64,000 nucleotides of DNA from an uncultured Actinomycetota bacterium (GTDB lineage Bacteria; Actinomycetota; Actinomycetes; JAHEKZ01), in NCBI GenBank assembly GCA_963829525.1, contig CAWHIJ010000003.1:2304001-2368000 (forward strand). Direction: 5' to 3'. How positions within the stretch are numbered: the stretch's first letter is position 1; each line of letters opens with the position of its first letter. Positions 8,076 to 12,379 of this stretch are shown one piece after another. The translations under genes were made by a program, and so were the position numbers. The notes beneath the pieces are model-generated. The model was not told where the DNA came from. It did not search any database and worked only from the letters and a program-made list of their open reading frames with translations.

Positions 8076-9264
8076 GTGGTGGGCATCAAACTCGAGTCGA
8101 GCGGCGGCGTTGGATCAAACGGCGGCGCCACGTCCCGATCGCGGACTGTTGTACTGGTGGTCGCGGTTGTGCTCGTGGTCGCGGCGGTCGCTGTCATCGG
8201 CACTCAGTGGAAGGTGCTGCCGTGGGTACCCGACGCGGCAACCTTCGGGACGGCAAGTCCGCCCGACGCCTCCTCGACCCCGCCCGATGTGGGCGAGCCC
8301 ATCGACCTGGCCACCGACCTTGCCGTGCCATGGGGGCTGACGTTCTTGCCCGACGGACGTGCGTTGGTCGGCGAGCGAACCACCGGTGAAGTCAGCGTGA
8401 TTGTCCCCGGAGAGGCTCGCCGCGCCGATCGGCACCGTTCCCGACGTTGCCGACAATGGTGAGGGTGGTCTGCTCGGCATCGTCGCCTCGCCCACGTTCG
8501 AGGACGACCAACTCATCTACGCCTACGTGACGACGAACATCGACAACCGCGTGATCACGATGGAGCTCGGCGACGACGTACTGCGTAATCCGATGCCGAT
8601 ACTGACCGGCATCCCCGACGAGTCCTACCACGACGGTGGTCGTCTGCTGTTTGGGCCAGATGGAATGCTCTACGTCACCACGGGGGATGCTGGTGTGCCC
8701 GAGAACGCCCAGGACCTTTCGTCGTTGTCAGGGAAGATCCTTCGCGTGAATGCGGACGGCTCAGTCCCCGACGACAACCCATTCGCTGGCTCACCTGTGT
8801 GGAGCTATGGACATCGCAACGTCCAAGGCCTGGCCTTCGACGACGACGGACGGCTCTGGGCGTCGGAGTTCGGCTCGTCCGCCTACGACGAGCTCAATCT
8901 GATCGAACCAGGAGCGAACTACGGGTGGCCGGAGGTCGAGGGCGTCGGCGGTGAGGTGTCCGAGACGAGCGGGTTCGTCGACCCGCAAGTCACCTGGCCG
9001 ACCAGTGAGGCCTCCCCCAGCGGACTGGCATGGCTCGGCGGCGTGCTCTACATGGGCGCGCTCCGTGGCGAGCGTCTCTGGGAGATACCCGTCAGCGGTG
9101 ATACGGCCCAGGAGCCGACTGCTGCCCTTGAAGGGGAGCTAGGGCGCATCCGCACCGTCGTGGTGGCACCCGACGGCGACCTGTGGCTGACCACGAGCAA
9201 TACCGACGGGCGCGGGGACCCGCGCGATGGTGACGACCGTGTGGTTCGCGTCAGCCTCAGCTGA
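8076..9264 (+). CDS. PQQ-dependent sugar (glucose/sorbosone) dehydrogenase, membrane-anchored; frameshift near 8410
   Basis: N-terminal TM segment and LAVPWGLTFLPDG in ORF 8022..8462; GEGGLLG, HDGGRLLFGPDG, YGHRNVQG, NYGWP in ORF 8401..9264; start approximate. Confidence 0.85.
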
Positions 9265-9362
9265 CACACGGTTAGCCGAGGTGGTAGCCCTCCTGGGGCC
9301 GGAGCAGTAGGTGCGTGTGTCTGGTTGCTCGCAGAACGCGTCGGAATTTCAGCCTGGGTGTC

Positions 9363-9385
9363 TTGTCGGTGGGTTGGTTTAGCGT
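9363..9385 (+). promoter_or_regulatory. RecA-NDp / PafBC-type DNA-damage-inducible promoter
   Basis: TTGTCGGTG-ggttggtt-TAGCGT matches the mycobacterial consensus tTGTCRgtg-N8-TAnnnT exactly. Confidence 0.75.
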
Positions 9386-9537
9386 GGGTGTTGTTGGTAG
9401 CGGTAGTGAGATGAAGGTGATGGAACCCCCGTCGTACTGGTGTGCTGGTGGTACTGGTGCTACCGGTAGCGCGGGGTTCGATGAGACCAGGTGATGGCCG
9501 CTGCTGGTCCTGGTTGTCGTCGGAAGGTCGCTGGTCG

Positions 9538-10821
9538 ATGTTTACCCCTGAGGTGTTGCCGGAGCCGTTGCTTGCGGTGCTTGGTCAGGTGCGGGCTTGG
9601 TCCGGTGCCGATGCCCGGCAGGCTTTGGTGGGCGCTGACGCTCAGACCCGTGCGGGCTGGGTGGTGGGGTTGCAGCAGCTTGCTGATGCGGTCGCGGTGG
9701 CGAACCTGGCGGCGGTGGCGGCGTTCGACGCTGCGGGTGACGGCCAGGTGCTGCATGGTGCGGCGTCGACGCAGGCGTGGATCCGGGGTGCGTGCCGGGT
9801 GAGCGGTGCGGAGGCCGCTGAGCGGGTCAGGATCGCCCGGGCCGCTCGCGGGTTCCTCGGCGGCGCGGTCAGCAAGGTGGGTGAAGGCTTGTTGACCTAT
9901 GACCACCTACGCGCGGTCGAACGCGGCGTGCGGCACATTCCGCAGTCCCGGCAACCGGCGGCGGTGACCGTGCTGACCGACCTGGCCGAGGTCGGGTCGG
10001 TCACCGATGTGCGGACCGCCGGCAAGCACCTGCAGTTCGTGGTCGACCCCGACGGGTCTCTGGCCGACAGCTGTCAGCAGTTCGACCGCCGGTATCTGAC
10101 CCTGGCTCCGTTGCTGGATGGGATGACCTCCCTGGGCGGCCTCCTCGACGCTGAATCAGCCGCCCTGTTGACCGCGGCCCTAGAGCCGTTCCTGGTCCCT
10201 GCCGACGCCGCTGACACCCGCACCGCCGCGCAACGCCGCGCCGACGGGCTGGTCCAGATCGTCGCCTCCGCCGCCGACCAGGCGCTGCTCCCGGTCATCG
10301 GGGGTGAACGCCCCCACCTGCACGTGATCATCGACCCGCGCAGGCCTGCTTCAGATGTCCCCGGCGACACCGATCCAGCGACGCTGCCGCCGGGGCGGCT
10401 CCCGCAAGCACCCGGCGGTTCGGCGTTCCTGCACCCGGTGGCGGTGGCCCGGATCGGCTGCGACGCGCAGCTGACCGCGCTGCTCCTCGACGACCACGGC
10501 GTCGTGGTCGACCTCGGCCGCACCCGGCGGCTGTTCTCCCCGCAGCAGCGACGATTGCTCGCCGCCCGCGACGGCGGCTGCCGCTTCCCCGGCTGCGACC
10601 GGCCACCGGCCCACACCGACGCCCACCACCTGGTCCCCTGGCACGAAGGAGGCACCACCGACCTCGCCAACGCCCTACTGCTGTGCCGCCACCACCACAG
10701 AGCCGTCCACGAAGGCAAATGGACCCTGAACACGGCAAACCCCGAACGGGGAACCCACGGACCCATCACAGTCACCAGCCCCACCGGCCAACAACTCACC
10801 ACCCACCCCCGCGCACCCTGA
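9538..10821 (+). CDS. DUF222 + HNH endonuclease (13E12/REP13E12-like repeat family)
   Basis: RTAAQRRADGL, DLGRTRRLFSPQQRRLLAARDGGCRFPGC, DAHHLVPWHEGGTTDLANALLLCRHHHRAVH; start ATG 9538 (ORF track opens at 9442). Confidence 0.92.
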   Translation: MFTPEVLPEPLLAVLGQVRAWSGADARQALVGADAQTRAGWVVGLQQLADAVAVANLAAVAAFDAAGDGQVLHGAASTQAWIRGACRVSGAEAAERVRIARAARGFLGGAVSKVGEGLLTYDHLRAVERGVRHIPQSRQPAAVTVLTDLAEVGSVTDVRTAGKHLQFVVDPDGSLADSCQQFDRRYLTLAPLLDGMTSLGGLLDAESAALLTAALEPFLVPADAADTRTAAQRRADGLVQIVASAADQALLPVIGGERPHLHVIIDPRRPASDVPGDTDPATLPPGRLPQAPGGSAFLHPVAVARIGCDAQLTALLLDDHGVVVDLGRTRRLFSPQQRRLLAARDGGCRFPGCDRPPAHTDAHHLVPWHEGGTTDLANALLLCRHHHRAVHEGKWTLNTANPERGTHGPITVTSPTGQQLTTHPRAP

Positions 10822-10849
10822 CCGAATCCGGTACTGACGCGACCTCCGC

Positions 10850-12379
10850 TCAGCTCGGTGGCACGCCGACCCTCTCGAGGATGAGCTCGCGGACGCGTCC
10901 TGCATCCGCCTTGCCGGCGGTCGCCTTCATCACCGCACCGACGATTGCTCCTGCGGCCTGCACTTTGCCGTCGCGAATCTTGGCGGCGATATCCGGTTGC
11001 GCTGCGAGTGCGGCGTCGACAGCCTCGAGCAGGGCACCGTCGTCGGAGACGATGGCGAGCCCGCGCGCAAGAACGACTTCATCTGGACTGCCCTCACCGG
11101 CGAGCACTCCCTCGATCACCTGGCGAGCGAGTTTGTCGTTGAGCGAGCCTTCTGATGTGAGCACAATGATTCGATGAACGTCTGAAGGGGTGATCGGCAG
11201 CTCCGCCACGTCGAGTCCCCGCTCGTTGGAAATGCGGGAGATCTCACCCGTCCACCACTTGCGGGCATCTGCGGAGTCGGCTCCGAGAGCCACCGTCTGC
11301 TCCACCAGTTCGAGGGCCCCGGCGTTGATCAGTGACTGCATGTCGTGCTCGGAGATCCCCCACTCCTCACGCAGTCGCGCCCTGCGCTGAAGCGGCGGTT
11401 CGGGCAAGGTAGAACGCAGCGCCTCGATCCACTCTGCATCCGGCGCTACTGGCGTGAGATCGGGCTCTGGGAAGTAGCGGTAGTCCTCAGCCTCCTCCTT
11501 GACCCGCCCAGACGTGGTCGACCCGTCGTTCTCGTGAAAGTGACGAGTCTCTTGAATGATCGTTCCACCGGACTGCAGCACCGCCGCCTGCCGCTGGATC
11601 TCGAAGCGAACAGCGCGTTCGACCGAACGGATTGAGTTGACGTTCTTCGTCTCGGTACGGGTTCCGAACTCAGTCCGGCCCCGCGGCTTCAACGACAGGT
11701 TGGCATCTACCCGCATCGAACCCTGGTGCATGTGCGCATCAGAGACCCCAAGTGCAACGATCAGCTCACGGAGCTCCGTGACGTACGCCCTGGCGACGGA
11801 CGGCGCCAAAGCGGGCTCGACCTCGATCGGCTTCGTGACGATCTCGATGAGTGGAACACCAGCTCGGTTGTAGTCGATCAGCGAGTAGTCGGCGCCGTGG
11901 ATACGACCGGTTGCGCCGCCGACGTGCAAGATCTTGCCAGTGTCCTCTTCCATGTGCGCCCGCTCGATTCCCACCGTCAGGGGGCGGGGGCCGTCATCGG
12001 TTTCGACCAAGATCTCGAGCGCTCCGTTGAACGCGATCGGTTCGTCGTACTGCGACGTCTGGAAGTCCTTGGGCATGTCCGGGTAGAAGTAGTTCTTGCG
12101 CGCAAACCGCGACCAGTCAGCGATCGAGCAGCCCAAAGCGAGCCCGATCCGGACGGCCGACTCAACCGCCTTCTCGTTGACGACAGGGAGCGCTCCGGGG
12201 AGTCCAAGGCACACGGGGCAGACCTGCGTGTTCGGTGGCGCACCGAACACGGTTGGGCACCCGCAGAACATCTTGGTCAGCGTATTGAGCTCGACATGCA
12301 CCTCAAGACCCATGACTGGGTCGAAGGTGGCGATGGCGTCCTCGAACGACATCAGCGGCTCTGTCGTGTCAGCGGTCAT
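10850..12379 (-). CDS. gatB: Asp-tRNA(Asn)/Glu-tRNA(Gln) amidotransferase subunit B
   Basis: [43 protein letters not shown]. Confidence 0.97.

Follow-up and report, generated by a model that had tools for sequence, protein, structure and literature searches.

Structured leaders that mask the ribosome-binding site are known from the homing endonuclease genes of T-even phages (e.g. I-TevI), and the rpsO/S15 operator and SAM-II represent a translational operator pseudoknot and a riboswitch expression platform, respectively. Among bacterial genes, the 13E12 genes of Mycobacterium tuberculosis are described as induced by DNA damage and LexA and as driving large inversions (PMC13157036), and as gene-conversion hotspots without defined function (PMC13061034). 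The association of an HNH-containing nuclease with an adjacent RNA is represented by IscB and its omegaRNA, also named HEARO (PMC9755519 and bioRxiv 10.1101/2023.03.14.532601).

The window analysed here is a stretch of 64,000 nucleotides of DNA from an uncultured actinomycete. It contains a 5' leader of ~146 nt (9392–9537, plus strand), which scores 115.7 bits with the covariance model R1 described below, and directly after it a DUF222-HNH gene of 427 aa (9538–10821, plus strand), which belongs to the REP13E12/13E12 family. The leader resembles those of the T-even phages in being promoter-proximal and folded, in directly adjoining the translation start of a nuclease gene that is self-contained and multi-copy, and in possessing a conserved complementarity that covers the start region, the presumed purpose being a low nuclease output. 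In contrast to the phage leaders, it is found on a bacterial chromosome behind a damage-type promoter, and its consensus helix H2 abuts the ribosome-binding site but does not contain it; masking would need a predicted alternative fold. With the REP13E12 family of M. tuberculosis the gene has in common the same two Pfam domains, the many copies per genome and the damage-type promoter motifs, whereas the literature on DUF222/REP13E12/13E12, as represented by parts of the main texts, titles and abstracts, describes no RNA leader. As in IscB-omegaRNA (HEARO, Rfam RF02033), a structured RNA lies directly 5' of the gene for an HNH nuclease, within a unit that is mobile or repeated; unlike that system, the present locus shows neither a detectable RuvC or PLMP domain nor a HEARO match, nor does it have a variable 5' segment of the guide type or an IS200/IS605 context. 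The rpsO/S15 and SAM-II elements are comparable in their pseudoknot-type core adjoining the ribosome-binding site and in their mutually exclusive pairings, both of which are predicted here, but the core conserved in the present leaders is small and so far confined to one genus. No Rfam family matches the leader motif and a literature search on DUF222/13E12 found no description of it in the parts of the texts covered. The leader may be considered as a new RNA motif of a familiar kind, the mechanism of which we infer.

The DUF222-HNH unit and its promoter

A Pfam search with the frame 9442–10821 returned DUF222 (PF02720; 1e-27) and HNH (PF01844; 3.9e-6) and no other domain, and the columns of the HNH residues His, Asn and Cys are invariant across 30 sequences. 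The gene is flanked by a glucose/sorbosone dehydrogenase gene (8401–9264, plus strand) and by gatB (10850–12379, minus strand). It is a multi-copy gene, with 27 matching stretches in the 2.96-Mb genome and matches in all 20 genomes of the bacterial family.

Three codons on the plus strand are candidates for its start, namely GTG 9442, ATG 9481 and ATG 9538. Homology to the genome's own paralogues begins at residues 31–35 of the 9442 frame, which corresponds to ATG 9538, and a start codon is exactly aligned with ATG 9538 in 21 of 33 paralogue loci. A purine-rich ribosome-binding site is located 7–10 nt 5' of the start in all 13 related leaders; in the window copy it is the Shine-Dalgarno sequence GGAAGG (9522–9527, plus strand), which immediately follows H2 and is spaced 10 nt from the start codon. 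GTG 9442 sits in a tandem repeat specific to this copy. In 4 of 14 leaders the codon at the 9481 position shares the reading frame of the gene, and it is an open ATG in the window copy alone; of the other three in-frame positions, one belongs to a copy interrupted by an in-frame stop and two read GCG and ACG. Because of the onset of paralogue homology, the aligned starts, the conserved ribosome-binding site and the lack of a conserved in-frame start at 9442 or 9481, the translation start is assigned to ATG 9538 on comparative grounds. Initiation at 9442 or 9481, which according to the earlier note would speak against a leader, is thus contradicted by both the paralogue alignment and the comparison of leaders.

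Upstream of the leader, TGTCGGTG (9364–9371), a spacing of 8 nt and TAGCGT (9380–9385) match a promoter of the RecA-NDp/PafBC type (9364–9385, plus strand), the RecA-NDp consensus being reportedly due to Gamulin in 2004. Judged from this motif, transcription likely starts near 9391–9393 (~9392). The strict pattern TGTCGGTG-N8-TAGCGT is present in six copies in the 2.96-Mb genome, two of which belong to the two copies of the nuclease unit, whereas three precede uvrA, uvrB and a DnaQ-type exonuclease/GIY-YIG gene. The sharing of the motif with these three genes argues for the DNA-damage promoter that had been proposed from the window sequence. Such a motif is described as PafBC-dependent and as the element by which PafBC activates DNA-damage genes in Actinobacteria (PMC6789036 and PMC8223512). 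Scans of the stretch 9200–11000 returned neither a terminator nor a sigma-70 promoter. In the upstream regions of paralogues within the family, a regex scan found a RecA-NDp-like or LexA-box-like motif in 21 of 22 distinct regions, and the leaders deduced from these motifs would be 21–192 nt long.

The four strict motifs outside the nuclease units are located at G000:C3:1512887(-), 1513200(+), 1872937(-) and 1879102(-), in front of the DnaQ-type exonuclease/GIY-YIG gene, an unassigned 125-aa frame, uvrA and uvrB, respectively. At uvrA, a GTG is found ~11 nt past the -10 box, and therefore the uvrA mRNA would be nearly leaderless. A LexA-box-like palindrome of the TCGAAC-N4-GTTCGA type was seen at the promoter, instead of or beside the RecA-NDp motif, upstream of the DUF222-HNH paralogues L052, L053, L054, L056, L057, L066, L034/L060, L065 and L068. 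Of the paralogues found in other genera of the family, many have this palindrome.

Promoter, leader, gene and a 31-nt tail form a duplicated unit (9351–10852, plus strand), as revealed by a second genomic copy at G000:C3 ~220227–221665 (minus strand), which is frameshifted by two 1-nt insertions. Identity between the two copies amounts to 98.5% (1368/1389) over 9472–10852 and to 86% over the promoter block 9351–9394; between the matching blocks the copies are unalignable, the segment being 77 nt long in the window and 40 nt in the second copy. Since upstream flanks vary between copies and the similarity starts at the promoter, promoter, leader and gene move as one unit, for which no terminal inverted repeats were found. 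The two copies are in opposite orientation, ~2.09 Mb apart, and have swapped flanks. An orthologous gene adjoins gatB in G008, G013, G001 and G006, as in the window, and the upstream flank in G003, G006, G007, G008, G009 and G013 is the one found beside the frameshifted copy. A large inversion by recombination between the two copies fits this arrangement; inversions of this kind are described for the 13E12 genes of M. tuberculosis (PMC13157036).

A DNA search identified related leaders in 8 of 61 genomes of relatives, that of the window (G000) included, and in 6 of the 13 other genomes of the genus. The covariance model R1, built from nine leaders, gave 16 strong matches in the loci examined; after 13 of them a DUF222-HNH frame comes immediately next on the same contig, and the remaining three reach the contig end at the start codon. 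Applied to whole genomes, R1 matched in 10 of the family's 20 genomes, the same 20 making up the whole sample of the order, and all ten with a match belong to genus g1, with one to four copies each. The motif is so far limited, among these 20 genomes, to one genus of uncultured bacteria. In metagenomes, a 14-mer of block c (see below) was present in at least 118 stretches, which are regarded as chance occurrences because R1 gave no match at E ≤ 0.001 among the 80 loci listed. A second group of leaders, class II, is represented by six copies (L101–L106; e.g. G009:C168:13230–13380) of ~95–100 nt, the proteins of which are ~58–60% identical; R1 touches these leaders at the right place, with E values of just 0.05–0.1.

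Two side observations concern the sequence of the unit. The two leaders of G006 (L023:329–489 on C57 and L016:1534–1685 on C56) are distinguished by additional GTCCTTGTCCTGGTC-type units within the 3' portion of the H2 loop, L023 being 9 nt longer overall, and by unrelated sequence upstream of the -10 box, which indicates slippage and mosaic promoters in the family. Furthermore, a stretch of the H1 3' arm, GCGCGGGG (9469–9476), has its perfect complement, CCCCGCGC (10807–10814), just before the stop codon, as part of a 15-nt, 80% inverted pair. The unit exhibits a steep strand gradient between 9300 and 10850: the GC skew declines from +0.39 within the leader to a 3'-terminal value of -0.35, and the AT skew rises from -0.55 to +0.57, with the zero crossing near 9900–10000. 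The many imperfect inverted pairs between the halves of the unit result from this gradient in strand composition, and given the gradient the complementarity of GCGCGGGG and CCCCGCGC may be due to chance. The gradient itself may, as a matter of speculation, reflect strand-specific deamination around recurrent breaks.

Conserved helices of the leader

The earlier note had drawn attention to a long hairpin with the outer stem arms GAACCCC (9423–9429) and GGGGTTC (9473–9479) and the inner arms TACTGGT (9435–9441) and ACCGGTA (9462–9468; seven pairs, one of them G-U), to a direct repeat GTACTGGTG (at 9434 and 9451), to a palindrome GCTACCGGTAGC (9459–9470) and to a second stem ACCAGG (9486–9491) / CCTGGT (9509–9514), all on the plus strand. 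Each of these motifs was found at the position claimed for it, the 12 strings checked in the leader and at the start codons being all present at exactly the coordinates given. The inner stem, the direct repeat and the palindrome, however, are one and the same 9-nt tandem repeat (GTACTGGTG, 3.9 copies according to Tandem Repeats Finder; 9434–9467, plus strand) inside the loop of hairpin H1. It is absent from all 13 other leaders in the alignment and represents an expansion of the H1 loop in the window copy alone. Of the structure described, the outer hairpin and the second stem stand, being accompanied by compensatory changes in the 13 other leaders, whereas the three inner elements are specific to this copy.

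Folded alone, the plus strand of 9392–9537 reaches -58.5 kcal/mol (z = -2.08; 7 of 200 shuffles equally stable), compared with z = -0.97 for the minus strand. Over 20 leaders of all classes the mean z is ~ -1.3, with values of -2 or below in seven, and three close relatives gave +0.52, +0.93 and -0.32. The fold of the single copy is only modestly above chance, and the comparative data are the stronger evidence for structure. In 25 of 28 pairs from eight copies, the leader without its H1 loop shows stronger conservation than fourfold-degenerate codon sites in the gene that follows it, these pairs being not independent and the alignment favouring the leader somewhat. In a metatranscriptome, one run with a small share of the sequence yielded a single 173-nt contig, on 9540–9712 within the gene, and no sequence from the leader.

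The structure model consists of hairpin H1, the base and the top of helix H2, and P1, in which the 5' end pairs with the H2 loop. In H1 (9423–9479, plus strand) the stem is formed by 9423–9429 with 9473–9479 and encloses the loop 9430–9472. H2 (9480–9521, plus strand) has 12 bp, divided into a base (9480–9484/9517–9521) and a top (9485–9491/9509–9515) with G9516 bulged; the stem ACCAGG/CCTGGT is a part of it, and its loop (9492–9508) holds the segment a' (9497–9507). H1 abuts H2, and H2 ends 1 nt 5' of the ribosome-binding site.

This model was compared with two alignments, A2 being a plain MAFFT alignment of nine leaders and A4 an alignment of 14 distinct leaders to R1, which encodes P1 and H1 and not H2. 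In A2, 89.5% of the cells in P1, H1 and H2 are paired, compared with 27–53% when the 3' partners are slid by 1–3 columns. The corresponding values for A4, the sequences of which are close kin with many G-U pairs in an alignment fitted to P1 and H1, are 87.9% and 29–52%. Seven pairs in A4 changed on both sides, a number reached by 17 of 500 shuffles, and 12 cells did so (0/500 shuffles); the covariation score is 0.266 as against 0.191 (0/500 shuffles). When given A4, RNAalifold returned H1 and both parts of H2 unprompted.

Most two-sided changes are found in H1, where they affect four of six pairs: GAACCCC/GGGGUUC of the window is represented by GUCUCC/GGAGAC and ACCUCC/GGGGGU in G001 and by GCCCG/CGGGC in G013. 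In H2, 94.1% of the A4 cells of the base and 87.4% of those of the top are paired, and in L025 the base GAUGA/UCGUC is changed in a compensatory manner to GGUGA/UCACC. The class II leaders, which are devoid of H1 and of block b, have kept H2 adjoining an AAAGG ribosome-binding site, its base being GAUGAC/GUCAUC, GAUGAC/GUCGUC or GACGAC/GUCGUC, i.e. with U-A, U-G and C-G in the variable pair. Enforcing H1 and H2 together costs 3–33 kcal/mol relative to the unconstrained optimum in the 14 leaders. The recurrence of H1 and H2 with compensatory changes in A2, A4 and the RNAalifold consensus answers positively the question, raised along with the first description, of whether homologues conserve a structure, and the observation of a conserved folded leader before the DUF222-HNH gene is confirmed.

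Candidate pseudoknot and competing pairings

The 5' strand of the candidate pseudoknot P1 is segment a (9394–9404, plus strand), which pairs with 9497–9507. Its core 9397–9403 is complementary to the core of the H2 loop (9498–9504), and helices of 5–11 bp are present in all of the 20 leaders examined. On A4, 86.6% of the P1 cells are paired and one pair changed on both sides. Within class I, GGAAGCG/CGCUUCC (L046, L058) corresponds to GGCAGCG/CGCUGCC in other copies, and in class II the complement between loop and 5' end reads AGGCGG/CCGCCU, compared with GGYAGCGG/CCGCUGCY in class I. The duplex energies of cognate and non-cognate combinations do not differ (-13.81 vs -13.21 kcal/mol), and no more than 8 of the 20 copies beat 95% of loop shuffles. 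On account of these two results P1, which is weak taken alone, is kept as a candidate that is likely but unproven. By eye, the AGGCGG 5' segment of class II is also complementary over 5–8 bp to the spacer before the start in all six copies.

The same strands have further possible partners. Block b (9405–9422, plus strand, from the alignment) is a repeat of block c, AGGTGATGG being present at both 9414–9422 and 9489–9497. In relatives, block b reads GAGACGACGGTGATGG / GACGACGG and can pair with GTCGTC in place of block c; the window copy has a 5-nt deletion in this block. GCTGGTC is repeated at 9503–9509 and 9530–9536, and two purine-rich blocks, GAGACGACGGUGAUGG and GAUGAGAUCAGGUGA, are conserved and unpaired. 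The translation start region (9526–9548, plus strand) is complementary to 9473–9499, a pairing designated ALT, in which the 3' arm of H1 and block c are combined with a stretch that runs from the final GG of the ribosome-binding site through the spacer and the start codon to codons 2–4. ALT, and not H1/H2, was the RNAalifold result for the first raw MAFFT alignment, at just -7.3 kcal/mol. On A4, 91.2% of its cells are paired, compared with 37–59% in slid controls, and three pairs changed on both sides. The helix S1 (block b with GTCGTC) has 85.4% of its cells paired. Another helix, S0 (segment a with the spacer), was rejected, its share of paired cells being just 69.4%.

When enforced as a whole, ALT is less stable than H1 and H2 in 10 of 14 leaders, both being above the unconstrained optimum. 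The consensus H2 excludes the ribosome-binding site, ending 1 nt before it, while the conserved ALT covers 9526–9548 but is energetically poor when enforced. The predicted unpaired probability varies between copies from 0.17 to 0.99 for the ribosome-binding site and from 0.00 to 0.90 for the start codon, with no consistent pattern of accessibility across the copies. Two sets of partners that compete for the same strands, one of them over the start region, look like the layout of a translational switch; short repeats in GT-rich sequence can alone produce the same layout.

The stretch is best explained as the untranslated 5' leader in the mRNA of a DUF222-HNH (REP13E12-type) nuclease, which would be transcribed from a damage promoter of the PafBC/RecA-NDp type. 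In the cell, H1 would be stacked on the 12-bp H2, which would end 1 nt before the ribosome-binding site, and the extreme 5' end would probably pair with the H2 loop as pseudoknot P1. As alternatives, GTCGTC would be paired by either block b or block c, and the spacer and start codon by either block c or segment a. Because the same segments keep complementarity to other partners, the leader is probably, though by no means certainly, a cis-acting switchable brake on the translation, and perhaps on the mRNA stability, of a potentially harmful nuclease, by which its output after DNA damage would be limited.

It is unlikely, by comparison, that the pairing is functionless, having arisen merely from GT-rich composition, from slippage during replication and from gene conversion among the members of a repeat family. 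A steep strand gradient in GC and AT skew together with internal short repeats would create complementarity without selection, and the tandem and direct repeats in the leader, the many alternative pairings that all score well and the weak fold z-scores of several copies are in keeping with such an origin. Yet pairing falls to 27–59% in the slid controls, H1 and H2 carry compensatory two-sided changes, the C-runs of H1 persist despite a C-poor background, the leader surpasses synonymous sites in conservation (25 of 28 pairs), and class II retains the architecture with different sequences.

Pseudoknot operators that give feedback are found in ribosomal-protein mRNAs and in the T4 gene 32 mRNA. 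The present leader could similarly be an operator bound by a protein, either the DUF222-HNH nuclease itself, with its helical, weakly ParB-like domain, or a damage-response factor, which would be a special case of cis regulation providing feedback. The pseudoknot-like core directly at the ribosome-binding site, the conserved unpaired purine-rich blocks GAGACGACGGUGAUGG and GAUGAGAUCAGGUGA and the specificity of the leader for the DUF222-HNH gene family would suit an operator, but the N-terminal likeness is to the DNA-binding domains of ParB/KorB, with Z scores of just 5.5–6.4, and the class II leaders lack H1 and block b; binding of this kind appears quite unlikely.

The nuclease protein and the guide-RNA reading

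The AF2 model of the protein has a mean pLDDT of 80.6. In this model, the HNH part (about 311–427) best matches TagI (Z 8.1) and McrA (Z 7.1), the HNH domains of IscB and Cas9 scoring Z 4.6–6.1, whereas residues 1–172 are only weakly similar to the DNA-binding domains of ParB/Spo0J/KorB (Z 5.5–6.4), a level that is common for helical proteins. A Foldseek search of the PDB gave no match at E ≤ 0.001, and neither Pfam nor the comparisons of structure models detected a RuvC or PLMP domain. That the pseudoknotted leader is a dedicated RNA partner of this protein, bound by the weakly ParB-like domain and licensing or restraining cutting after damage, would be a long shot. If true, it would for the first time open the unexplained 13E12/REP13E12 family to functional study, and it would define a new type of RNA-associated HNH enzyme.

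More improbable still is the reading put forward in the earlier note, i.e. that the leader is a guide or scaffold RNA of the nuclease, as the omegaRNA (HEARO) is for IscB. A conserved structured RNA does lie directly 5' of an HNH nuclease gene, and its conserved scaffold surrounds a fast-changing H1 loop, which is wholly different between two copies that are otherwise 98.5% identical. The expected combination of a scaffold with a variable segment was found in part, as a conserved scaffold with one variable internal loop, but the 5' end is conserved and the loop of the window copy has no target elsewhere in the genome. The H1 loop is the sole fast-changing segment; its length is 6–43 nt and in several copies 6–9 nt, which is too short for a guide. 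In the window copy it is a self-pairing tandem repeat, for which a blastn-short search of the genome gave a best other match of 19 nt (E 0.08). The conserved 5' end is located inside the duplicated unit, and a terminator before the gene, by which a small RNA could be released, was not detected in the scanned stretch. An Rfam cmscan of 8800–11200 with E up to 10 gave no HEARO match and a single unrelated one on the other strand (E = 1). Together with the undetected RuvC domain and the lack of a guide-like segment, these results argue against a guide or scaffold RNA. A DNA recognition end, which had been suggested as another possibility, does not fit either, the palindrome being copy-specific and the 5' limits of the duplicated units differing between copies.

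Translation of the leader is scarcely credible, be it into an N-terminal extension that begins at GTG 9442 or ATG 9481 or into a leader peptide. In its favour, the frame from 9442 is open into the gene and an ATG occupies the 9481 position in 8 of 14 leaders. Against it, GTG 9442 lies inside the copy-specific repeat, 10 of 14 leaders have the 9481 position out of frame and three have no start codon there (GCG, ACG, ACG), paralogue homology begins at 9538, and the indels of the leader are not multiples of three.

The preferred reading is thus a fold-switching leader acting in cis on its own nuclease gene. Few genes of Actinomycetota are repeated as often as those of the DUF222-HNH ("13E12") type. 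If the preferred reading is true, these nucleases would be held in check post-transcriptionally as well as by the damage promoter, and the leader would offer a simple experimental handle on the 13E12-type nucleases.
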